A model generated the notes under the pieces. The model was not told where the DNA came from, searched no databases, and saw only the letters and a program-made list of their open reading frames with translations. A stretch of DNA of 64,000 nt from Phyllosticta citribraziliensis (Eukaryota), in the NCBI RefSeq assembly GCF_038025025.1, contig NW_027117348.1:248001-312000 (forward strand), in the 5' to 3' direction. Of the stretch, positions 27,935 to 45,193 are shown one piece after another. The first letter of the stretch is position 1. Every line of letters starts with the position of its first letter. The translations under genes and the position numbers were made by a program.

Positions 27935-29465
27935 CTTGACAGCTGGAAGTAGCGACACCGGAAGAGAGGATTCTGGAAGAAGCAATGCGAGACGGCTTGA
28001 AAGCAAAGAGTGAAGGTGAAGAAAGGCGTCGGTTGGTCGTGATGGTTGTGTCGGCGGTGGAGGAGGAGAGGTGCAGAGTTGAGCAGACGCGCCGAAATAA
28101 AAGTCGCGTACTGGTGGTGGGCGGTGCGGTGCGGCCACAATATGGAAATCAGGCGCTGAATGGAACTGCTCACAGCGCATCACGTGTCCACAATGAACGG
28201 TGTTGATGCGCTGCCAAATTAACACTGCCGGAGTGTTAAGTCTGAGTTCTCGACAGTACCACCACGAGCATCTCTTCCTGATGAGCCTTGCAACGTTAAA
28301 AGGACCAGATTGGGTGAATCGCCATCTCCCCAAAAGATCAATTCCATCTACGCCTGTCTGAAGAAGTAAGATGTTAGCCATCATTGGCATGATTGAGAAT
28401 CTTGATCACCTTTTAGTCAGATTCTTGGAGTGGATCGATTGCAATCAATATACTCGAGTAGGAGTCCACGGCGTTTGTGAGGAAACAGTGACGTCTCTTT
28501 TAGTAGCCGCTAGCAGAGATTATCTGCGTGAATGGCTCTCGGTGCTGTGGAAACAGAGTCTCCCAGACTTTGAAGACAGTGCGCTGCCAACGCAAAGGCA
28601 GACGAGACGGCCTCTAGGAATTCTCAGGATATACGACCCAATCGATGCGAGCCGACGCAGGTGGTGGCGAGCGATTGCAGGTTTCGGCTTTTTCCACACA
28701 CCCAAGAGAGTGGCTTCAGTGAGTTGAATATACGATTTGGTGGTGAGCTGCCTGCGACGGAACGTCTCACACCATGTTTGAACACCATTCAGAGGTCATA
28801 CCGACAGCCTTTTGTAGGAAAGTTAGTGTTTGCTCCTGTCGACGACAAGCACTTTGGACGCCGTCTGGAAAAAGCCCTGATGGAGAGCAGAGACTGGGGC
28901 AATCCGCCTTGTTTTCAGGCAAATACTTGGACAGCTTGACCATCTAGATCCGACAATCCGAAGCAGATTTGGGGATCTCTCCAGCATCGCCATCAGTTTG
29001 AAGAAGCAAAGATCTCGCGTCCTGCTTGGAAAAGGTGTCGTCTACCGACGACGTCTACCGACGAAAAGGACTTTGACAACGTGGGATCCAGGACAGCTTC
29101 AGTACCTCGTTTCCGAAAGACAAGAACTGTCCAGGTGGACTCGAATACTGGAGAGATGAAAATAAGAGCGACTGACGTCTGTTGTTGATGCGGGGATCGG
29201 CCTTTGACCCTGGCAACCAAAGGAACGGGTCGCCCCACCCTTGGCCAAACTCAACACCAACGACCAGCCATCCATCACCATCCCCATCCAAGATAACGAC
29301 ACGCCACATCGATCTCATCTCCATGGGCCTATTCTTCCGATAGGTCTGCCCCGACTCGGCACGACCCGCGCGTCCATCACGTCAGCATGCCCTGCTCACT
29401 CCCGCCGCCCCCGCCGGTCGCGTAACTCGATCCGCCCTCCCCGACCATCTCCATCTCCGCCAGCC

Positions 29466-31794
29466 ATGAAGTCCGTCGCCATCATCGGCGCCGGTCCGTC
29501 CGGCCTCGTCGCCGCAAAGACGCTGCTCCACGCGTTCCCGAACAATGCGTTCCGCGTCACGGTGCTCGAGCGTAACAGCCGCGTCGGCGGCATGTGGGCC
29601 ATGGACAAGGGACAGCCCGGCGGCAAGGCCGACTCGCACATGCCGACCAATATCAGTCGCTTCAACGTTTGCTTCTCCGACCTCGCCTGGTCTTCTGTGT
29701 TCCCGGACGACGACGGTGACGGCGAGCTGCCCGTGTTTCCGCAGCTCTGGCGCGTGGGCAAATACTTGCAGGCGTACGCGGACAGGTATATCCCGCCGGA
29801 GGTGATACGACTGAATGCGGCTGTCAAGAGCACGGAATTGGTCCACAGCGAGGGGCGCGACAGGTGGAGGATTAGATGGGAGCAGTCGCAGCAGTTGGAC
29901 GGCACACCATCGGGGAGCTCAGGCTCGGGAGGAAGCAGTCCATCTCAAGAGTCCGTGGGCGAGGTCGAGGAAGAATTCGACTACCTCATCGCGGCCACGG
30001 GCTTCATGCATGACCCCAAGGAACACAATGTGGCGGTCCCCAGCGACATCCCACTCGCCGTCAAGCACAGCTCGACGTTTCGCGATCTGAACGACTTGGT
30101 CACCGAGAACTCGAATACAGGCAACTCGATCGTCGTGATAGGAGGCAGCATGTCCGGATGCGAAGCAGCAGCCAACGCCGCGCTCCAGATATCCAACTGC
30201 CAGAGCTCCCCGTCCTTCGCCGGCAAGGACTTCAGCGACTTCAAAGTCTACCACATCATGCCGCGGCAATTCTACATCCTCCCCTACTACCTCCCACCGC
30301 CGCCGCAGGAGGGAACTGGCTACGACCCTGCCCCGACCTTTGCTCCGTCCGACATGCGCATGTTCAACCTGTCCAAGCGGCCCCCTGGTCCCGTCTCGCC
30401 CAACACCGGATTGGACAGTCAGACGTCGGCCGCAAACAAGCACAAATGGCTCCAGGCACTGCTGGGTGGGAATCAGGCGGAGCTGGGATCACCAGCGATG
30501 ACGTTCTCCGAGTCCGACTTTGACGACTCGCCATACGTGGGCATCAGCGACAATTATGCCGAGTTTGTTCGGTCGGGACTCATCGTCCCCGTCCGCGGTA
30601 GGGCGAGGAGTGTTGAAGTGCAAGAAAAGGCTGAGGGCAGCAAGACCTACGTGATGAAGGTCGCAGGGGAAAAGGTGAGCCACCCATCCAACATCGAGAA
30701 CTTTGCTGACCGAGCAGGACATTATGATCCAAGACGTCGCCGGCGTCGTCCACGCCTCGGGCTTCTCGCCCAACGGATCCTTCTCCTGGCTCCCCAAGGA
30801 CGTCCGCGAAAAGATGGAGTGCGACGAACAATGCAACCGGCTGCCGCTGCTCCTCAACAGCCGCTGCGCGCTCCACAACGCCGTCCCCTCGCTCGGCATG
30901 ATCAGCTTCTACCAGGGCATCTTCTGGGGCGTCATGGAAATGCAGGCCTACCTCCTCGGCCGCAAGTGGGCAGACGACCAACACCCCAATCCCCCAGACC
31001 ACGCCTCCGAGGCCGAGCTCGCCGAGATGCGTGCCCTCCGCGCCGCCATCGTCAAAAACACCACCAACGTCCCGCAGTTCTGGCAGGGTGACTTTGTCGG
31101 CCTGATGGAGGAGTTTGCGCGCAACCTCGCCATCGACCGCAACGACACGGGCTTCGACGCCCGCGCCGGCCCCGTCTTCCCCGCGCGCTACACTCCCCCT
31201 GGCGCCGCCGCCGCCGAAGCCGCCAAAGCCATCGCCGACCACCACCGCATCTCACACGCCGTCGACCACGACGCGCGCTTCGTGGCGTGGGCCGCGTTCC
31301 GCGCGCTGCAGGGCCGCTGGCGCCTCACGCGCACGCTGGACTCCAAGCTCGCGGGCTTCCCCTCGGGCACCTTTTCCGGCACCGCCACCTTCCACCCGCG
31401 CTACCCCACCGACCCTGCCTTTGCGGCCGAGTACCTGTACGTCGAGGACGTGACGCTGGTCCTCGAGTCCGGCCACACGCTCGCCGCGTCGCGCCGCTAC
31501 GTGTACCGCTATGACCCCGCGCGCGACGCGCTCAGCGTGTGGTTTGTGCAGCCGGCCAACAACAAGGCGGCCGACTACCTGTTCTTTGAGATGGTGTTTG
31601 AGGCCCCTGACGAGAACGTCTCCGGCAAGAGGACCGGCTGGGTGGCCCACGGCGCGCATCCCTGCGAAGACGACTTTTACACCAGCCGTGTCGAGTTTCG
31701 CTTCCGAGGAGTTTATTTGGAGGGGTTTGGGGTGAGGTATGATGTCAAGGGTCCGCGGAAGGACTATGTTAGTGAGAATTGGTATCGGCGGTGA
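29466..31794 (+). CDS. Flavin-containing monooxygenase-like protein with C-terminal DUF6314-type domain
   Basis: MKSVAIIGAGPSGL, ERNSRVGGMW, FDYLIAATG, IVVIGGSMSG. Intron 30675-30717. C-terminal LQGRWRLTRTL...YLYVE...RRYVYRY...HPCEDDFY...VKGPRKDY. Confidence 0.9.
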
Positions 31795-34419: not shown

Positions 34420-35300
34420 GTCATGAAGTAGACAGAGCAGTGGTCCACACAGGAGCGCCAGTAAGAGGGCAGCCATTGAGTAGGCCAGTAGTTCAGAGTC
34501 CAGCGAAACCTTCGGCACTCCCACTCCTTCCGGGCGGTCAGAACGAACCTACTCAACGTAGAGAGGAGAACAGAAATCTCCGATGGGAGGCAGAGTCGGC
34601 AACGGGACAGTTTGGAGGGCGTATGGCTCTCCGTTGACCATGCCTGCACTTCCCCAGGAGACGCGTGAAGTGCGTCAGGTCGGCTTGCCGTTGTGCGATC
34701 GGTGAAGATGGCGAAGAGATCGCTTGCCGGACGGTCCCAGGAGAAGGAGGGATGGTATGGGCGGTAGGTGTAGTCCTGGCGATGGCGACAATCAATGCTT
34801 CCCCAACATTTAGTCCAATAAATCCGGTTGATTTCCCGCGTGGTCGGGTGCGGAAAAGCTCTTATGTCGACGACTACTAACACCATGCTGGGACAGAGGA
34901 CAAGGACCGGGGGGATCAGGCTTTGGCGGGTTTCGCAGTAAACCAGCCGCGTATCGCCTGATTCACGTGTGTCTTCTTTGGTGCCGTATAAAACGTGATA
35001 TGTACGAATGTGACAGAGCCAGAGGTTGGGAGAGTGATCAGGAGGGTAAGTTCATCCAAGTTTGCATGGGGAAGATCGCGGAGTGTCGGATACTCCTCCA
35101 TGAGTTCCCCATCGCTTTTTCGCCGTTGGTCACATTGAGCAGCATGGCTGCAACAATGAGACGCCACGGTTCCTGGTAGACCTCCTCCTGAATCAACCCG
35201 AAGGTTTCGGCTGTCGTTGCGCCGGTAGCAGGGCGGGCTGGTTTGACCGGCGAAAAGTGGCTGTTATGGTCCACTCCGAGTAGTCGATTCCCGCGTACAT
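34420..35300 (-). pseudogene. MBD4-like HhH-GPD DNA glycosylase pseudogene
   Basis: FGLIQEEVYQEPWRLIVAAMLLNVTNGEKA, frameshift near 35108, then ELMEEYPTLRDLPHANLDEL. Degenerate C-terminal KEW...DSELLAY...QWL split across frames. Confidence 0.75.
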
Positions 35301-36327
35301 GGAGGGCGGGTTTCGGCTTGGAATCGCAGCCGTCGTATCGGGTGCCGTGCGTGGCGTATATGAGTCCGGCTTCCTGGCACTGCAGCAGGAGTGTGCAGTA
35401 ACTTCCCAGCGGCGATTTTTTAGGCCATTGGCCCCCAAGTCGCGGGGCTTAAGTTAGTTAGCCGTCTTGCGAGCGTTGCGTGATGGAGATGGGATCAGCC
35501 CAAATCATGCCGCAACAAGGCCATCTCTACAGACGACCTGCCGCACCGGAGCGCTTTTCCACGGTTCACCAGCAGCAGCCCATGGGATTCCACCCGGCGC
35601 TCCTTACTGTGGCCGCCAATCCCGCTGCTAGGGCCTGAGGTCTCGTCTCTCCGCGTGGAGAAGGCTGAACTTAGCCCCTGCCAAGACTGACGCATATTCC
35701 GCCAATATATGAGGTACGTTGCACCTGCGGAGGCGGCTGCCGTGGTAAAGTCGGCGAGGTTTCCGCGTGCGTGATGAACGAATGGCCCAGATAGTCTGGG
35801 CGCGGTAACAAGGACGCTTTTTGATGCGTCTACAAGCATTGAAAGTGATGCTTCGGAATATATAACGGCTGGTGGAGTAAGGTTAGCATTCTTGTTGCAA
35901 AGAATGGATGGTTTTGGAGTACTCACAGTCTTCCCGCAGAAGACTACACAAAGCGCAGTATTTCAGATGCGCCAATAATACACATGGCACAGCAAAAGAC
36001 ACCGATCGAAGCGGCTCGCAAGCCAGAAATCGACGTTCGGCGTCGTTGCATGGTCTGAGGGAGAATATTAGCATCTTTTTGAGCAAGTACCAATTGCTAG
36101 ACACTCACGAGTATTCCACGCTGAGCCGATGCCAGTGCAGTGGCAAAGTTGAGCATAATTTGTTTTTGGTGTTTTGTGACTTTCCAGTCGTGGCGTCGTC
36201 ATTCGTCTGGGGATGGGCGTTAGCAGTTGGAACGAGAAGTATTGGACGTCTGAGAACTCACAAACCCCTAGACAGGACTTCCTCTCGTCCCTCTCCCACT
36301 TCTCGCCCTCCTCACCACACCCACCTC

Positions 36328-37218
36328 CTAATGCTCAGGCTCGTCCTTGATTTGAACGTCCTCGGCGCCCTGCACGCAGGGACTGAGTCGGTAAACAGGC
36401 TGCGAGGATTCGCGCTTGACGGAGACTTGAGCGGCTTCCTGAGCTTTTTCTGTACCCGCAGAGACGGTCGGCGATTTGTGTTGCTGGCGCGTCTCGTGCT
36501 GTCTGCGAGCATTGTTGTACGGATGGTGTCGCTGGTCGGTGCGGGTCGAGGCGATGCCGCCGCGGCCTCCGCGTCTGCTGGATGCGTTCCTTGGGCCGGT
36601 CGGGGTCACTGCAGTCGAGGCGATTCCGTCGCGGCGTTCGAGCTGTTCGATCTGAGCGACGAGGGCCTTGGCCGACTTGATGCCGCGCAGATTGTTGGAA
36701 GACTTGCGCAGCTTCTCCAGCAGCTCCGGCGAAAGGCGCAGCAGCCACTTGTCGATCTCCTCGCGCTCGCCGCCGTTGACGTCCCAGTCGCCGTTGATGT
36801 CGACGTAGCCCAGCTTCTTCTCGATGGCCTTGATGCCCTTCTTGAAGCTCCGGAACGACTCGCCGGGCTTCATGCGCTGGCCCCAGTAGCTCTTGGCCAG
36901 GTTGACGTGGTGCTCGAGCTGGACGCGGTGGACCTGGTCGAACAGCTGGTCGAGCGTCGTTAGACCTGTCTTCAAGTCGTTGGTCCTTTCGCCGAGGGTC
37001 GAGAGCAGCTCGGGTGGGAGACGGGAGAGCCACATGTCAATCTTTTGCTTCTCAGGCATGCTGGAGAATTTGTAGCCCAGCTTTGCTTCTAGAGCCCGGA
37101 CGCGCTCTTGAAAGTCGTCGAGCGACTCATCGTCGCCCATGCGAAGGGCCCAGTAATCATTGGAAAAAGACAGTCGAGAAGGTGCTGGGGAAATGTCCAT
37201 AAAAGGAGTCGACGACAT
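36328..37218 (-). CDS. Tandem Gag-capsid-CTD-like repeat protein, paralog A (intact, 296 aa)
   Basis: Two repeats YWALRMGDDESLDDFQERVRALEAKLGY...IDMWLSRLPPEL and YWGQRMKPGESFRSFKKGIKAIEKKLGY...IDKWLLRLSPEL. RGGRGG tail. TATAAA ~30 nt upstream of ATG 37218. Confidence 0.75.
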   Translation of the reverse strand: MSSTPFMDISPAPSRLSFSNDYWALRMGDDESLDDFQERVRALEAKLGYKFSSMPEKQKIDMWLSRLPPELLSTLGERTNDLKTGLTTLDQLFDQVHRVQLEHHVNLAKSYWGQRMKPGESFRSFKKGIKAIEKKLGYVDINGDWDVNGGEREEIDKWLLRLSPELLEKLRKSSNNLRGIKSAKALVAQIEQLERRDGIASTAVTPTGPRNASSRRGGRGGIASTRTDQRHHPYNNARRQHETRQQHKSPTVSAGTEKAQEAAQVSVKRESSQPVYRLSPCVQGAEDVQIKDEPEH

Positions 37219-38263
37219 TGTTCTGCTGGGGATGGCTCTCCTCGCCTTTATACACCACAGGACCAACCTGGAGCTGCGAGCCCTGGCGCTCGAGTGGAAA
37301 GCAATGTGACAAGTTGACGACAAGACAGCGGTGAATGTGATTTGTGACGCGTCGAAGTTTTTGGCGCGCAACCGAGCGGGCGGGTGCGTGGATCAGTCTG
37401 TCCGCGTCGAGTCAGTCGGCCGGGGTGTTCGAAAGTGGATCCAGCGCGTCCACGTCGAGAGCAGAGCCAGAGGCGGGTCGCAGCGTCGTCCGGGCGCCCC
37501 CATCACATTGCCCGATGCGGAAAAGTGTTGTCTCCCGGCGCGTTTGCGGCGCGTCTGCCGGCAGAGGCCATCGACCTGTCAGTTACGCATTTCGAGCATG
37601 GTCAGCGGCATCACGTGTCAATGGGCAATGGAAAGTGGTGGAATTGAATTCGTTCTCCAGATGCACTGCTATCGGTTTGCTGTCGTTTGCCTCACCGCCA
37701 GATTGATATCCCAGCCGGCGGAAATTGGCGTGGTGGAGAATGACCGGGGCAACCGCAGCGGCTGCCAGCATGGCGGCGTCGTCCAGCGGCTGCGGAAGCG
37801 CAATCCATGTTTCCACGACCAGAACACACTGCATTCGATTGATCTCCGCCTTGTTGAAGCCATTGATTGATGTTGGAGTTGAATTGCTTTTTTCGGATCA
37901 CGTCAGGACCTGGGTTTGAGATAGCAGTCTGCGGCTACGGAAGTCCAACCCTTGCTCCGCGGTGGCAACTCACGAAGACTGCATTTGCTTGAGGTGGTCC
38001 ACGTCGTTGAAGCAGTTGATTGGTGATGAAGTGCCTTTTCCGGAAGGCTTCCGCGTCGAGTGTCACAACGAAAGTCTCCGAGTCCCAAAAAGCACACACG
38101 ACAGACACCTTGCCGTTCCCCCATCTCCTGCCCTGCCGCAATCATCCAATTCCAAGCCTGCCATTCCTTGTCTCCCATATCGTTCTTTGTGATTGATTTA
38201 TCCTCCGTGCAGACGATCTGCGTAGGGCGCTCTCGATGAGCGTGGTCAGTCGCTTCGCTGTCT

Positions 38264-39808
38264 CTATCCGCGACGCTTTTCACGGCGCTCCGAGCGGATC
38301 TTCTTGCGCTTGCGAGGCTGCTCGTCGACGTCCGAAGAGTCGGCCTCAGCCTCGTCACTGTCGACTTCGACGTGTCTCCTCTTGCGCTTGCGCGACTTGT
38401 GCTTGATGGCCGGAGGGGAGGCGAGCTGCTCGTCCTCGTCTTCGACCTGGCGGCTCTTCTTCTTGCTCTTGCGACGCTTCTCCTTGACGACTGGAGTGGG
38501 AACGTACTCTTGCTCTTCCTCGTCGTCGTCGTCGTCGTCTTCCTTGGCTTTGCGACTCTTGTCTCCCTTGCGCGACTTCTTCTTGACGACCGTCGGAGAA
38601 ACCGCCTCTTCCTCGTCAACCTCAGCTTTGCGACTCTTCTTGCGCCGAGGCTTGTCCTTGAAGGTGGGAAGCGGGTCTTCCACCTCGTCATCATCGTCTT
38701 CGAAGTGAACCCTCTTTTTGAGCTTGCGAGGCTTGGCCTCGACGGCCGGGGGCAGAGCTACCTCCTCTTCCACCTCTTGCTTGATCTTGTGACTCTTCTT
38801 GCGCTTCCGAGTCTTTTCCTCGACGGCTGGAGGTGGAGACTCCGGCTCCTCTTCCTCATCCTCTTCCTGTGCATGGCGGCTCTTCTTGTTCCTGCGAGAC
38901 TTGTCTTTGAAGAATGGAGGCATCTGATTCGAGTAGAAGCCCATGAAACGTACTCCCTCCACGGCTCGAGGGGAAGACTTCTGCTCCTCCTCTACATCCT
39001 CTTCCTGTGCACGGCGGCTCTTCTTCTTCTTTCTCGACTTTTCCTTGACCGCCGGAACGGTGGCTTCCTGCTCTTGCTCTTCGTGTCCCTCGGCCACCAG
39101 GCTCTTCTGACGCGTGCCTTTGTTGTCGACAGATTGAGTCGCAGCCTCCTGCTCCGGAGCCATGTCATTGAGCTTGATTTCCCACCAGTATCGAGAGAGC
39201 CGAGGGTTCAGCACCAATGCCTCCCATTTTTGACCAAATTCGACCTGACGCAAGCATTCCAGCAATTCCTGCTCTGTCTTGATGCTCTCAAGACCGTTTG
39301 CGTAAAGCCGGAGCGACTCAAGCTCGGCGGGCAAGAGGCGAACAAGCCACGAGTCAATGCGACGCCTTTCCGACAGCTCTTCTGGTTCGTCAATGTCGAA
39401 GTAGCCTAGAAGCTTCTCGCGTTTATCGACTTCGGCTTCGAACAGGGCCCAGTTTTTGGCCTTGTTGAAATGGAAGCGGGACGACATCATTTGTCTCGTC
39501 TCGTTGACCCTGTCTTGGCATTCGATGCTGCAACACCTTTCGAACAGGTGATAGACGGTTTCGAATTTGAGGGTTTCCTTGGAATCAACACGAAGCTTGT
39601 GAAAAAGGTTGGCCGTCAGGCGCGAAAGCCACAACTCGATTGTCGCCTGATGATCTGCAGTGTCGGGCTGAAAGCCAAGCTTTTTCTCGAGGGTGCGAAC
39701 GCGCCAGTAGAAGTCCTTGAACTTTTCGTCCTTGTGCATGCAAATGTTCAAGTACTCCGGCGGCAGCTGGACGTTGGGCGGTGCGCTGGCGCGCTGAACG
39801 AGCGCCAT
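38264..39808 (-). CDS. Tandem Gag-capsid-CTD-like repeat protein, paralog B, with K/R-E/D block-repeat tail
   Basis: EYLNICMHKDEKFKDFYWRVRTLEKKLGF...IELWLSRL and FEAEVDKREKLLGY...IDSWLVRLLPAEL, followed by about 8-9 charged repeats. Confidence 0.75.
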   Translation of the reverse strand: MALVQRASAPPNVQLPPEYLNICMHKDEKFKDFYWRVRTLEKKLGFQPDTADHQATIELWLSRLTANLFHKLRVDSKETLKFETVYHLFERCCSIECQDRVNETRQMMSSRFHFNKAKNWALFEAEVDKREKLLGYFDIDEPEELSERRRIDSWLVRLLPAELESLRLYANGLESIKTEQELLECLRQVEFGQKWEALVLNPRLSRYWWEIKLNDMAPEQEAATQSVDNKGTRQKSLVAEGHEEQEQEATVPAVKEKSRKKKKSRRAQEEDVEEEQKSSPRAVEGVRFMGFYSNQMPPFFKDKSRRNKKSRHAQEEDEEEEPESPPPAVEEKTRKRKKSHKIKQEVEEEVALPPAVEAKPRKLKKRVHFEDDDDEVEDPLPTFKDKPRRKKSRKAEVDEEEAVSPTVVKKKSRKGDKSRKAKEDDDDDDEEEQEYVPTPVVKEKRRKSKKKSRQVEDEDEQLASPPAIKHKSRKRKRRHVEVDSDEAEADSSDVDEQPRKRKKIRSERREKRRG

Positions 39809-40123
39809 GGCGAGAGCGTGGCTCAAACTTGAGCGGAAACTATTGCCGGATGTCAGAAGAGGAGAATCAACGTCAAAAACCTCACCAACTTACCAAAACG
39901 CGTCGTTCGTAGAGCCGGCGCTCAAGGTGGAGGTGGTGGTGTTGAGAAATCGAGGTTGCGACGTGGCGACGCCAAAGTAAACAACACCGGCGGACGTGAC
40001 TGGTTTCGCCGAGAGAGGCAACGCAAATGTGCACCTGAAGCGACACCCTATGGCCTATTTGGGCTTGGCTCTTTCTGCGACGCGCCTGCACGTCTCCCTC
40101 CTCTCGGGCTTCAGGCAAAGGAG

Positions 40124-41173
40124 CTAGAAGGACGGGAACGGATACTTGGGCGCGTGTCCCAAGATGTTGTTGGCTTCAGCAAAATGATTGTGTAAGCCGG
40201 CAGCGACCTGTTCCAACGTCCTCCGCTGTTTCTTGCGTTGTCTCCACTCGCGATTCTTCTGTCTGTCCCTTTCTCGGCGGTACGGAGTCTTTTGCCTGCG
40301 CGGTCTGTTCTGGATAGGTGGAAGGGCAGTGTACAAGGGCCGCGGCTCGTGGGCTGTCTCGTGGCTGTCTTCTGCGGTGAGTTCGGGTTTCGTGTCCTCC
40401 ATTGCTTCGCCATCTTGCGCCTGCTCTTGGTTTTCTGCATGATCTTCCTCCATCAATAGCTCGTAGCCGTGAGCCTGCCTGTCGCCGTCTTCTTTCTTCA
40501 GCTCGCCACGTTCCAGCGCGCCAGCATCCACTTCACCATTGTCTTCCCGCGGACCTGGTTGGTCACCTATCTCGTCGCCCTGTGTTTCCTTCTTTTGCGC
40601 CTCAATCTCGTCGAGCTCACGCAGAGCAGCGAGAAACTCCTTCTCCGTCGAGATGTTCTTGAGACTGTTTGTATGGCGCCTAAGCCGCTCGCGATGCTCG
40701 CTCCCAATGCGCACGATCCACTGGTCGACAATTCTGTTTTCGGGGATCCAGTTTGGCTCGGGCATGACGTACTGCAGCGTCTCCTCGAAAAAGCTGATCC
40801 TGGCCTGGAAATCACCAAAGGTTTCGCCCGGCCTGACACGCAGGGCGCCGTACCTCTTTGCTCTCCTCACTCTATCATCGAACTCAATCTTCCGCGCCGT
40901 ATCAAACACGTCGCCAACAGTCTCAAACTCGAGCTGCTGGCCCGTCTCTTTCTTGAGTCTCTCGATCATGCGCGGCTGCAGACGGGCGAGCCATAGGTCG
41001 ACGAAGGGCTGCTTCTTGGGGCTTTGGGGCTCCAGGTCGTAGTCCAAGCTCTTTTCGACCTTGTAGACTCTTCGGCGGAAGTGGTCGATTCTTTCGTCCT
41101 CCTCCATCCGCATGCTCCAGTATTCTTTGGAAAGATCAAGCCGAGAGCCAGGCTGGGGCTGCTCGGCGGCCAT
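40124..41173 (-). CDS. Tandem Gag-capsid-CTD-like repeat protein, paralog C (intact)
   Basis: EYWSMRMEEDERIDHFRRRVYKVEKSLDY...VDLWLARLQPRM and YGALRVRPGETFGDFQARISFFEETLQY...VDQWIVRIGSE. Arg-rich C-terminus. Confidence 0.75.
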   Translation of the reverse strand: MAAEQPQPGSRLDLSKEYWSMRMEEDERIDHFRRRVYKVEKSLDYDLEPQSPKKQPFVDLWLARLQPRMIERLKKETGQQLEFETVGDVFDTARKIEFDDRVRRAKRYGALRVRPGETFGDFQARISFFEETLQYVMPEPNWIPENRIVDQWIVRIGSEHRERLRRHTNSLKNISTEKEFLAALRELDEIEAQKKETQGDEIGDQPGPREDNGEVDAGALERGELKKEDGDRQAHGYELLMEEDHAENQEQAQDGEAMEDTKPELTAEDSHETAHEPRPLYTALPPIQNRPRRQKTPYRRERDRQKNREWRQRKKQRRTLEQVAAGLHNHFAEANNILGHAPKYPFPSF

Positions 41174-41785
41174 GGCAGGCGTTGTCCCAGATCGACGTGG
41201 TAGATGGCGGGCGGTGTATGGAATCGGAGTGGAAGCTGTGGCGAATATGAGCTCTCCCCAATTGGCAGTTTGTATATGAAGGGCACACCGAGAGCAGTGC
41301 AGGACGAGACTGGCAATCCTTCGAGTGGTGAGGTGGTGGTGCGGGAAGACGCGTCGCGGGTCGTCAAAGTAAACGGTCCACGCGATCTGCACTAGACCCA
41401 AAGAGGCAATGTAAACGAGGCGCGTCACGGTCGCGTCTCCGTGGGACTTGACTTTGACCTACAAATCGAGTATCGAGTTCTACGTGCAAAGATGAGGTAT
41501 GAGACTCAACGGCTGACGGATTCTATAGCAGAGACAGAGACATGTGGTCCCAAAGACATGGCCGGATCTACATTACACCTCCTTTCGATGCACAAACTCC
41601 TGCATCCGTTGCATCGCCGTTTTCTCGTTGCGGCCTTTAGGTCTCCTCTCCACGGGTACCGCAGTCTCCTCTTGATCACGTCTTGATTAACAACCTTTCC
41701 CCTTGCGCCGCTTGGGCTCACCGTCGTCACTAGAGGTCGCCTTGCGTCTGCGCTTCCTCTTGCGTTTGCGAGATTTTCCCCGACT

Positions 41786-42500
41786 TTATTCTGCGAGCCG
41801 CATTAGATACTCGATCAGGCTCTTCTTTCTGCAGACAGCATCCTTACCTGGTGGTGTTCGTCCAAATTGAGACTTCAGGGCGTCTGGAAGCCGCGAAACC
41901 AGGCTTTCGCCTTCTGCTTGGTGCCCCGGTTGTCCGCACTCACGGCATTCATCATTCACTGAAGCATCTAAGCCCTTCAATTGGTCGATGTAGTCTAAAA
42001 GCCGTTCATCCGTCTCCATAATGCGTGCACAGTACTCCCGGAGCAGCCCAACTCCCATTCGCGCAAGTGTAACTGCCGTTCGTTTGCCTTCACATTCTTG
42101 CGTCGATTGCGGCGTTTTCCTCCGCGGCCACCGCACTCACGAATGGGAAGATTGGCGTTGTCGTTGGCGTTCGAGTTGTTCCCATTGGCATTCGAGCTGC
42201 CTCCAGCAGGTGGCGGCGGTCTCGTAAGTTCCACTCGCCTCAATCCCATGAAAGCCGTTGGCACCGTCATCGGCTTTGCTGTAGATGGCGGCGATCTCAC
42301 AGGCTCCACTCGACCCAATACCATGAACGCCGTTGGCACCATTGCCGGCCTTGCGGTAGATTTATTTTTTGTCGCTCCAGGGCCCTTCGCGGCAGTCCTG
42401 AAGGCGGAATCGTCTTTGGCCATCCTGCGCTTCATTTCTTGAACCAGCTCCTCTCGCTGCACGAGGCACAAAGAGACACGCAGATGGGGCCTTCGCAATC
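41786..42500 (-). pseudogene. Degenerate fragment D carrying one diverged copy of the same domain
   Basis: EYCARIMETDERLLDYIDQLKGLD...LVSRLPDALKSQF...SLIEYLMRLAE in frameshifted overlapping ORFs. Confidence 0.45.
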
Positions 42501-42964
42501 GCCGCCGTAATTATCGTGCGGGACGTGGCCGGCGCGTAATTGCACCTTGGGTATCTTCAGGCCCCTTTTCGCTTCCAGTTTGGCTTCCGACTCGACGTCG
42601 ATCTCTTCCATATGCAGCTGGAGACGACGAAAGATTTCATTTCCCGAGCATCTCTTGCGACTTCTGCCTTCTATATCTGGGCCGACATCTTTGCTTTTTT
42701 GTCCGTTTTGGCGATACGCTTCCGTGCTTCTGCTGAGTGTCCTTTTCATGTGGCACATGTAAAATTTCCTCCCATCAATTCGGCCACTTCCGCACCTATC
42801 GCTGCTGCCCTTTTCGCTGTCGTTACTTGCGCCGCTGTTTGCGTCGTGCATTGCGCAATATTCTGGACTCCCGGTCGATGCTTGTACGGCCCGTGCACAA
42901 GAATCCGAGCACCATGATAAGACCCATTCTTGTGCTAGTGCTGGTGGCTTTCCATCTCAAACTA

Positions 42965-43852
42965 CTACTCTCTGATATGCTGCCGTCGCCTGCGTCGATT
43001 GCGGCGAGCAGCATTGCGGCTCCGTGTAGAATCGCGAACGTTCGAATCATCACCAGGGGCTGGGAGTGTCGGTCCAACGGCATGCGATGCCCGTCGCGCT
43101 CGAAGTTTCTCCTGGAGGTACTCCTTGCGAGCACATTCGTCTTGCTCCGCTTTCCACTTCTCGATGAACTGGCGGGGCCTCTCGTCCTCTTTTTCAATCT
43201 CTTGCCGCGACCTACCATACGCATGATCCATCGCGCGTTCTCAGTCCGCTTCGGTGTCTGCGTCGTGTCTGCCCTCACAGTCCCGCTCGGTCACGCGGCG
43301 GAATTGCTCGAGGACGTCTTGCCAGGTGTTGACGAAGCTAAAGTTGAAGGTCCTCTCGCGGAGCATTTTGAGTTCGCGTGGTGGAATGCGTGCAAGCAGC
43401 AAGTCGGTCGAGACTTGCCCAGATGTGTTTTGGAAGAAGCAGCTTTGCTCTTTGGGGATCTCTTCGAGGTGCTGCGCGAACAGGAATGACATTCCTGGCT
43501 GCACCTCTTGCTTGGTCTCCCAGAATTGTGTGGCCCTCTCGACCCGAGAGTCGGCCGCTTCCATTCGAGTGAGGACTGCAAATCAGTCGTCCAGGGTCTT
43601 GAGATTGAACAAGTCGTTCATTCTGATTCGTAACTTGTCGAGGAGTTTGGGCGGCAGACGTCCGATCCACATGTCAATCTTTTGTTGCTCAGGGACGAGG
43701 CTGAAGTCGTATCCTAGCCGCCGCTCGTAACGCTGTACCCGTCTCTTGAACAGCTCGAAGGGTTCATCGTCTCCCATGCGCATCGTCCAGAATTCGTTGG
43801 CCAGCAAGTAATGGTACGAGCTTTTGTGTGGGAGGAATCGTGTGTCAGTCAT
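42965..43852 (-). pseudogene. Gag-capsid-CTD-like paralog E with in-frame stops
   Basis: EFWTMRMGDDEPFELFKRRVQRYERRLGY...KIDMWIGRLPP. One continuous frame interrupted by TGA at 43585-43583 and 43243-43241. Confidence 0.8.
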
Positions 43853-44088
43853 GGCGTCGAAGAGTTGGTCGTGTCCCGGATTCTGCGTGGATATGCGACC
43901 GAGCCGTACGAGATTCAAAGCGGAGGAAAAGACGGAAGGTGTTGAGAGATGAGACGTTGTCGAAACCTTGCGTGGATGCTTAGTCACAAACCCTTAACAC
44001 CTCCGTATCTTGCTTCCCTTGCGTAGATTTCCCGTGCCTTTCGAAGCTCGCTGGTCTGTCTCCATCGAATCGTGAATTTCGGCTGCTC

Positions 44089-44976
44089 CTACTGCTGCTT
44101 ATTTCGCTTCTTTCCTCGTCGTCGGCCACCTGCATTGCTCCGCGCCGAGCCACCGTTTGTCTTTGAGTTATTGTCCAAGGATAGTTTTTCAAGACGGATT
44201 TCTTCCTGCACCTCTCTCTGCGACCTCTGAAATTGCTCTCTTCTATCCACACGTTCTTCTGCTTCCACGCTCTTGACGAACCTATGACCATATTCTTCGT
44301 CCATTTCCATCCGTCTGCGCGTTTTCTCGCGAATTCTTGATATTGCAACGAGCCAGTCACGCCAAACTTCCTCCGGTTCGGTGCGAGCTCCCATGCAGTC
44401 GTCAACGATTTCGCTGAACACGAATAAGACATCTTGCCAAGTGTTCACATTGTAGAGATTGGAAGTTCTCTCGCGGAACATTTGCAGCGCGTCGGGGGGA
44501 AAGCGGGAAAGCAGGACATCAATCGCCTCCTGGCGATTTTCGGGTGCGTTCCGGAAGAAAAAGCCGTTGGTTTTCTGAAAGGTTTCGAGCGCATAGATGA
44601 AGTCGTTCATCTCCGGATAATCCATCTGGAACTCCGGCAAGGGCTCCCAGAAGTTAATAGCCTTTCGACCCTGGCATCGGCAGCCTCAATTCGGCCAATG
44701 ACTTCAAAGAGATCCTGCAGGGTCGACAGCTCAGTCAGGTCCCGCGCCCGGATCCGCACTTTGTCTATGAGCGAGGGCGGAAGACGGCCAATCCACATGT
44801 CGGTCTTGCGCTGCTCGGTGATGTGGTCGAAAGTGTAGTAGCAGTAGGCTTGATAACGCGAAGACTCGCTGTTTGAAGAACTCGAAGCTCTCGCCTTCAT
44901 TCATGCGCAGCTTCCAGAATTCCCGGGCGACCAAGTACATAGTGGGCCTGGATCCTGGTGCGGTTGGTTAGGACAT
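44089..44976 (-). pseudogene. Gag-capsid-CTD-like paralog F with frameshifts
   Basis: MS*PTAPGSRPTMYLVAREFWKLRMNEGESFEFFKQRV, +1 shift near 44860, DMWIGRLPPSL...IEAADARVER, -1 shift near 44662, AINFWE...LLSRFPPDAL...VNTWQDVL. Confidence 0.8.
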
Positions 44977-45193
44977 GGGTACTCTGGGTCCATCTTCTCT
45001 GTGGTGGAAGCCATGAACAAAGAATAGAGAGATATCGAGACGAAAGATTTTGAGTTGTCCAGTCAAGAATTGAAGCCGCCGACACACATAGATTTCGTGT
45101 ATGCGCTTAGTCATCAGCGCCGCGTCAAACCTCCGCTTCTCCGCAAAAAGTTCCAACGACGACGACACCACGACACGACACTCCAGCCCCCCA

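Follow-up and report, generated by a model that had tools for sequence, protein, structure and literature searches.

An array of two-lobed capsid-like genes in Phyllosticta, probably derived from a domesticated retrotransposon Gag

Introduction

Arc and dArc1/2 are pol-less, Gag-derived genes encoding two helical lobes with the capsid (CA) fold, and in Arc these are an N-lobe and a C-lobe, an ancient pair of N-terminal and C-terminal domains (NTD and CTD). Ty1 p22/p18 and Drt2 are fungal and comprise a single CTD without an NTD, nearly identical to that of the target Gag; Drt2 is encoded in the host genome at a fixed position. SCAN is a dimerisation module that occurs singly, in vertebrates, fused to C2H2 fingers. 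This CA-fold domain was exapted from a retrotransposon (PMC6525542) and has been extensively duplicated (PMC8321522). The mammalian PEG10/PNMA/RTL genes, which retain a full NTD-CTD or a partial CA, expanded by duplication with loss of members (PMC11011659). For fungi, the main text of a eukaryote-wide survey gives three domesticated gag genes (Crtg12-14), all single copy and from other orders than the genes described here, and does not mention Phyllosticta (PMC8321522). A structural study of dArc reports no clear instance in which a single lobe occurs twice.

Here we describe a 9-kb gene array in a 64,000-nucleotide stretch of the genome of Phyllosticta citribraziliensis (the window), a fungus described as an endophyte (PMC6859488). 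The array is very probably a domesticated retrotransposon Gag fragment. As in Arc and dArc1/2, its genes lack pol and encode two helical lobes of predicted CA fold; unlike in Arc, both lobes are CTD-like and, within the family, up to 38% identical, as judged from sequence and models. With p22/p18 and Drt2 it shares the fungal host, the CTD without an NTD and, in the case of Drt2, the fixed locus, but here the CTD is doubled and multi-copy and no similar Gag was found. With SCAN it shares exaptation and duplication, and with PEG10/PNMA/RTL expansion by duplication and loss of members. A multi-gene double-CTD family at the level of a genus in a filamentous fungus is apparently an undescribed variant of gag domestication; we found no publication on this locus or on tandem CTDs in a literature made up mostly of journals outside subscription. 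With a natural CTD-CTD protein, the shell-building capacity of a recently duplicated CA domain could be tested directly, and such a test bears on the origin of the two-domain capsid. On a more tentative reading, the family would have repeated, at a far later date, the duplication believed to have given rise to the two-domain capsid of retroviruses.

Results

Gene inventory of the array

All genes of the array lie on the minus strand. We distinguish five clear paralogues (A, B, C, E and F), of which A, B and C are open and E and F are broken, and one weak remnant, D. Within ORF A (37218-36328, minus strand), the region 36630-37160 makes up the two-lobe core.

36328..37218, minus strand: gene A, open, 296 aa, with the order lobe 1, linker, lobe 2, tail
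36913..37158, minus strand: first lobe of A, spanning aa 21-102, with a predicted CA C-terminal-domain fold that opens with a short helix
36892..36912, minus strand: A linker, aa 103-109, within the long lobe-joining helix of the model
36628..36891, minus strand: A lobe 2, aa 110-197, CA C-terminal-domain fold (predicted model)
36517..36576, minus strand: patch RRGGRGG ... RHHPY in the tail of A, resembling RGG motifs and nuclear import signals of the PY type (pattern match)
38264..39808, minus strand: gene B, open, 514 aa, lobes at aa 18-99 and 108-191, then a 300-aa Lys/Glu-rich repeat tail
39840..39893, minus strand: GT-AG intron 5' of the B start codon (joint in a run X1 contig, ends checked)
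40124..41173, minus strand: gene C, open, 349 aa, lobes at aa 17-99 and 107-191, then an acidic tail that contains a basic segment (aa 299-318)
40800..40853, minus strand: in-frame 54-nt GT-AG intron of C, whose splicing drops 18 codons at the start of lobe 2 (X1 contig joint)
41786..42058, minus strand: D, tentatively one degenerate lobe, with a loop (CxxC-x4-H) resembling a zinc knuckle
41791..41847, minus strand: D intron, which cuts the last helix of the D lobe
42965..43852, minus strand: gene E, interrupted by two in-frame TGA stops, with two lobes plus an Arg-rich end
44089..44940, minus strand: gene F, two lobes and a basic end, broken by two frameshifts

The in-frame TGA stops of E are located at 43583-43585 and 43241-43243, and F falls into three reading segments. 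The tentative assignment of D rests on a family-profile match at E 0.07-0.08 among 1438 segments and on lobe 2 of the relative P0019, which matches D at E 0.007; its zf-CCHC match (E 0.002) is below the family cut-off. Both lobe-internal introns (40800-40853 and 41791-41847, minus strand) excise lobe sequence, namely the start of C lobe 2 and the last helix of D, and public models of the C relatives P0024 and P0025 also lack part of the C lobe junction. The open frame at 41995-42435 (minus strand) contains a 75-nt tandem repeat and a basic end like the E/F tails, with no detectable lobe.

Contigs that indicate splicing come from one of two runs, with gene A thinly covered and run X2 covering small parts only. 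None of the runs is recorded as RNA. Run X1, a single study that we took to be RNA by guess and that may be the window's own source, gave contigs over B, C and D-F whose GT-AG joints are oriented along the gene strand. One X1 contig runs across C and B (37654-41313) and another across F, E and D (41460-45040), with estimated outer ends; they may represent read-through or overlapping transcripts. Since contigs drop rare forms, an unspliced C transcript may exist beside the assembled spliced form. Over E, the X1 contig 41848-45040 shows 0 differences and 0 gaps relative to the window, and the breaks of F are present there too; because the match over E and F is exact, assembly errors are disfavoured as the cause of these breaks, with the limit that X1 may be the source of the window. 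Two further introns at 36055-36108 and 36207-36261 may belong either to the 3' end of A or to the next gene.

A two-lobe internal repeat

The sequence-only reading had proposed that A, B, C, E and F each consist of two consecutive repeats joined by a conserved linker. The repeat itself is real: the two lobes of A share 30 of 85 identical positions (35%, E 4e-16) with a shuffle z of 21, and a profile comparison of 19 lobe-1 against 19 lobe-2 sequences by hhalign yields a probability of 99.55 (E 2.2e-23). The claim of two-lobe copies holds as open genes for A, B and C, while E carries two stops and F is split by frameshifts. Similarly, the linkers HHVNLAKSYW, DRVNETRQ, DRVRRAKRY and SRVERATQFW are found where they had been placed, but the F linker ARVERAINFW straddles a frameshift. 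The motif LRxxxNxLxxIxT/S, proposed as the shared end of lobe 2, is exact in 3 of the 5 copies (A, B and C) and only loosely present in E and F, and a looser version recurs in the first lobe of four copies (A, B, E and F).

Predicted capsid fold

The core of A was modelled at pLDDT 84 as two helical lobes with one long continuous helix between them, and lobe 2 alone at pLDDT 78. Compared with 48,161 chains, the two-lobe model retrieved only CA-family chains (retroviral, retrotransposon and domesticated) at ranks 1-32, and lobe 2 alone only CA-family chains at ranks 1-36. Because the Z scores of 8-9 for these helical bundles are below the comparison tool's caution level of ~13, and because Foldseek with both models gave no match at E 0.001 or better, the case for a CA fold rests on this consistency of rank. 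Pfam assigned no family above cut-off to the window proteins or lobes; the best match, between lobe 1 of the relative P0019 and positions 107-181 of 198 of Ty3_capsid (E 0.008), reaches 16 bits against a cut-off of 29 and is followed by Arc_C at E 0.06. A search of PDB sequences with the lobes and proteins gave no known family (best E 0.2). Atlas features assign Retrotrans_gag at 0.91 to lobe 1, which we treat as a lead only, and Atlas searches agree with the CA origin that had been proposed from the letters of the DNA and that the structural ranks support.

Two CTD-like lobes rather than an NTD-CTD pair

Lobe 1, taken from the two-lobe model, matches isolated CTDs at Z 9.2, 8.8, 8.8, 6.8, 6.6 and 6.4, among them MLV CTD (9.2, rmsd 2.7 over 83), PEG10 CTD and dArc2 C-lobe (both 8.8), Drt2 (6.8) and Arc C-lobe (6.4, at 26% identity). 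Isolated N-domains score lower, with 5.5 for Arc N-lobe (6% identity) and 4.6 for Ty3 NTD. Lobe 2 likewise matches PEG10 CTD (Z 8.5, rmsd 2.8 over 76), Copia CTD (8.4) and MLV CTD (8.2) against 5.0 and 4.2 for N-domains, and in two-domain chains its partner is the CTD, with one exception, the rat Arc chain 7r24, in which it falls on the N-lobe. The margin of CTD over NTD is 1-4 Z units, in a comparison that holds few isolated N-domain entries. Across the described systems, dArc C-lobes score Z 7.5-8.8, p22/p18 and Drt2 Z 5.5-6.8, and PEG10 CTD ranks among the best three for each lobe, at Z 8.5-8.8, and is 25% identical to lobe 2. Each lobe also carries a short extra leading helix in the models (H2-8 in lobe 1 of the two-lobe model, H2-5 in the lobe 2 model), a feature that marks CTDs, which have five helices versus four plus an extension in NTDs (PMC6525542, PMC8121366, PMC12724554).

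The two lobes are far more similar to each other than the halves of real Gags. The lobe-lobe z is 5-19 in 7 of 7 family proteins, versus -1.1, 2.5 and -0.7 for the N/C half pairs of three real Gags of the same genome (alignments of 16-18 rows). The predicted models thus do not show the N-lobe plus C-lobe arrangement of Arc; they match a CA CTD without an NTD, as in Drt2/p18, and indicate that a CTD-CTD duplication, not Arc's ancient NTD-CTD pair, underlies the two lobes. The earlier comparison to the two-lobed Arc and Ty3 capsids is therefore retained for the CA fold, whereas the stated equivalence to N-lobe plus C-lobe finds no support, both lobes resembling CTDs and stemming from a much more recent duplication.

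This bears on the possibility that the proteins form Arc-like capsids, with lobe 1 in the NTD role, pentamer/hexamer shells and Arg-rich tails that would pack RNA. The two-lobe core matches Copia CA and dArc1/2 along its whole length and in topology (Z 7.8-8.9), and CA is itself a double fold of this kind (PMC6525542). However, the end-to-end fits have an rmsd of 6.7-8.7 Å, the lobes are joined by one continuous helix in the model, and lobe 1 resembles a CTD; in Ty1 and dArc the capsomer centres are built by NTDs (PMC12724554). We consider Arc-like capsid formation unlikely: with two rear halves and no front half, the proteins would more probably link to each other.

The internal duplication precedes the gene duplications

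In a tree of 38 lobes, lobe position requires 2 changes compared with a mean of 13 after shuffling (0 of 500 shuffles as low), the two lobes of one gene are never sisters, and the subtree of first lobes has the same layout as that of second lobes. Pairing of lobes by gene is rejected in AU tests for B (p 0.014), C (p 0.013), E (p 0.0001) and F (p 0.0003) and is not rejected for A (p 0.11). The single branch splitting all lobe 1 from all lobe 2 is weak, with support of 59/9 in a further tree and of 10% of bootstrap trees in that of 38 lobes. The phylogeny of individual lobes, proposed as a check by the sequence-only reading, thus groups them by position and never by gene, and supports its claim that the internal duplication is older than the gene duplications. 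Lobe 2 of the E/F-type copies is long-branched.

Relatives within Phyllosticta

A profile of 10 window lobes retrieved 18 matches from 1.84 billion representatives: 14 in Phyllosticta-named clusters (P. capitalensis, citriasiana, paracitricarpa and citribraziliensis), 2 from the window itself and 2 (P0022, P0023) that were rejected on inspection as unrelated repeat proteins. At E <= 0.001, these representatives contain no Gag outside the family. Orthologues of A also occur under the names P. citricarpa and P. citriasiana. Word-based searches identified relatives in 3 of 1051 candidates and 7 of 8000, all Phyllosticta-named or unnamed near relatives, and in 0 of 8000 among proteins of 787-2245 aa, which is weak evidence. 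The apparent multi-lobe proteins P0009 (6 lobes), P0010 (4 lobes) and P0025 were read as fused models of neighbouring genes; P0010, which bears the name P. citribraziliensis, reproduces stretches of E and F. Four P. capitalensis records place paralogues on neighbouring accession numbers, with an E/F-type at one end and a B-like gene at the other, as here, and this accession order, as distinct from flanking DNA, suggests an array conserved across Phyllosticta.

At the protein level, lobes are more conserved across species than tails: orthologues of A are 83-90% identical in the lobes and 58-75% in the tail (83-87% and 58-64% for those named P. citricarpa and P. citriasiana), those of B 73-76% and 47%, respectively. 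The A linker is identical at 7 of 7 positions in all three orthologues compared. Such conservation speaks against decaying relics of a nested or tandem transposon insertion without host function. E and F are broken, D is nearly unrecognisable, and the public gene models for E/F-type copies of P. citriasiana seem damaged or fused as well, all as decay would predict; yet A, B and C are open, spliceosomal introns are present, the genome holds one such locus only (three protein searches gave matches at E < 0.01 in this array alone), and the array has a GC content of 52-60% without a RIP signature, versus 24-40% GC in 10 of the 11 reverse transcriptase (RT) loci examined. We regard decay as very improbable.

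Tails

The tails of different paralogues are unrelated to each other. They had been described as basic, and the motifs RRGGRGG (in A) and RRERDRQ... are indeed present, but whole tails are near neutral or acidic, with net charges of +5 over 99 aa (A), +5 over 300 aa (B) and -7 over 157 aa (C). The Arg-rich tail of E exists in sequence, beyond the second in-frame TGA. Basic patches are kept within types, and the Arg-rich ends are conserved in E/F-type and C-type relatives, which would fit the packing of RNA in capsids; three relatives (P0017, P0019 and P0021) have no basic tail, and a CCHC knuckle was found in 0 of 15 proteins scanned, both of which weigh against it. Arg-rich tails could possibly stand in for nucleocapsid, as the sequence-only reading had suggested; the E tail gave no match to solved RNA-binding proteins. 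In the A tail, HHPY is invariant in 6 of 6 aligned A-type proteins, and RGG...RHHPY resembles a PY-type nuclear import signal, as a motif match only. The B tail (38264-39050, minus strand) consists of Lys/Glu-rich repeats of ~26 aa at a spacing of 78-81 nt and is shorter in orthologues.

A possible oligomerisation module

We favour, at a probability of roughly 40%, a domesticated Gag CTD-CTD family that acts as a SCAN-like oligomerisation module. In this scheme, the ancestor of the sampled Phyllosticta would have kept the CA CTD of a retrotransposon Gag, which would have duplicated in tandem to CTD-CTD, either in the transposon or in the host; the two-lobe gene would then have been amplified to a local array gaining and losing members. 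The core would dimerise via a helix-1/helix-3 face, mainly of lobe 1, giving homo- and hetero-oligomers among paralogues, and unrelated charged tails would carry these oligomers to the nucleus or to nucleic acid. Oligomers rather than closed shells are proposed because there is no NTD for the capsomer centres.

CTDs dimerise via helices 1 and 3 (PMC13709905, PMC8121366). Lobe 1 of A has hydrophobic residues at Y22/W23 (helix 1) and I60/M62/W63/L64 (helix 3), as read from the amino acid sequence; position 62 is hydrophobic in 16 of 16 lobe-1 rows, and the equivalent in lobe 2 lies outside the conserved columns. A homodimer prediction of the A core in which the alignment was unused scored 0.20, against a mark of 0.32. 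Two further points weigh on this reading: 2 of the 5 clear copies are broken, and the assembled C transcript is without part of lobe 2. The likeness to SCAN is one of functional analogy only, with a structural match of Z 3.3-3.8, within background, no Pfam SCAN match and no domain-swapped structure.

Transposon context

The locus has the features of a domesticated gag, namely no pol, no LTRs and a fixed position, and none of those of an active LTR retrotransposon (gag-pol, LTRs, dispersed copies). No RT was found in the 64-kb window among the genome's 78 RVT_1 and 11 RVT_2 matches, nor were LTRs or tRNAs. Nearly all RVT_1 matches of the genome are stop-riddled, and one open Copia pol is present elsewhere, within a gag-pol frame of 1516 codons (L009:960-5507, plus strand, G000:C5). 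An RVT_1 match without stops at G000:C2:1106423-1106671 (L019) lies in a region of 58% GC, unlike the mutated copies, and is possibly a cellular RT gene. At L007:1309-2970 (minus strand, G000:C9), a 553-aa frame matches Retrotran_gag_2 (Copia-type, E 2e-11) and then Retrotrans_gag (Gypsy-type, E 1e-6); it is possibly a second domesticated, chimeric gag gene.

In this setting the proteins could be bivalent retrotransposon restriction factors, whose CTDs would pair with Gag CTDs, cross-link lattices and poison particle assembly, with different paralogues covering different transposon families. We regard this view as possible but less probable than the oligomerisation module. Drt2 and p18 have the same architecture of a CTD lacking an NTD (PMC13709905) and score Z 6.6-6.8 against lobe 1; a conflict would fit the gain and loss of genes and the long-branched lobe 2 of E/F-type copies, and the genome offers many stop-riddled RT copies and one open Copia pol. 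On the other hand, Drt2 is not the best structural match, and restriction in yeast is subfamily-specific, with three residues of the interface decisive (PMC12530519), from which one would expect a target similar to the lobes. A resembling Gag is missing both among the 1.84 billion representatives searched above and in the genome itself, where lobe profiles gave no match to the open Copia Gag, to the L007 Gag-like ORF or to 10 kb on each side of the window. Against the 11 RT loci read with X at stops, the best E was 0.07, these loci being heavily mutated and the positive control also blank; a Ty3_capsid search of the genome was blank, with its control silent too. Since the yeast factors must closely match their target and the searches turned up no such Gag, we place the SCAN-like module ahead of a Drt2-like role. 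A host double-CTD family that self-assembles into an all-CTD lattice, or that serves as a bivalent, paralogue-diversified capsid trap against retrotransposons, is similarly a tentative option; in the latter case the array would be a candidate protein-level transposon defence in a fungus with RIP-like damage to its retrotransposons.

Directly downstream of the array, 35041-35250 (minus strand) encodes an exon of an MBD4-like DNA glycosylase (PDB MBD4, E 9e-6); its position beside the array in a genome with RIP-like damage is probably due to chance. Elsewhere in the window, 29241-31794 (plus strand) contains a flavin monooxygenase-like gene with a C-terminal DUF6314 domain.
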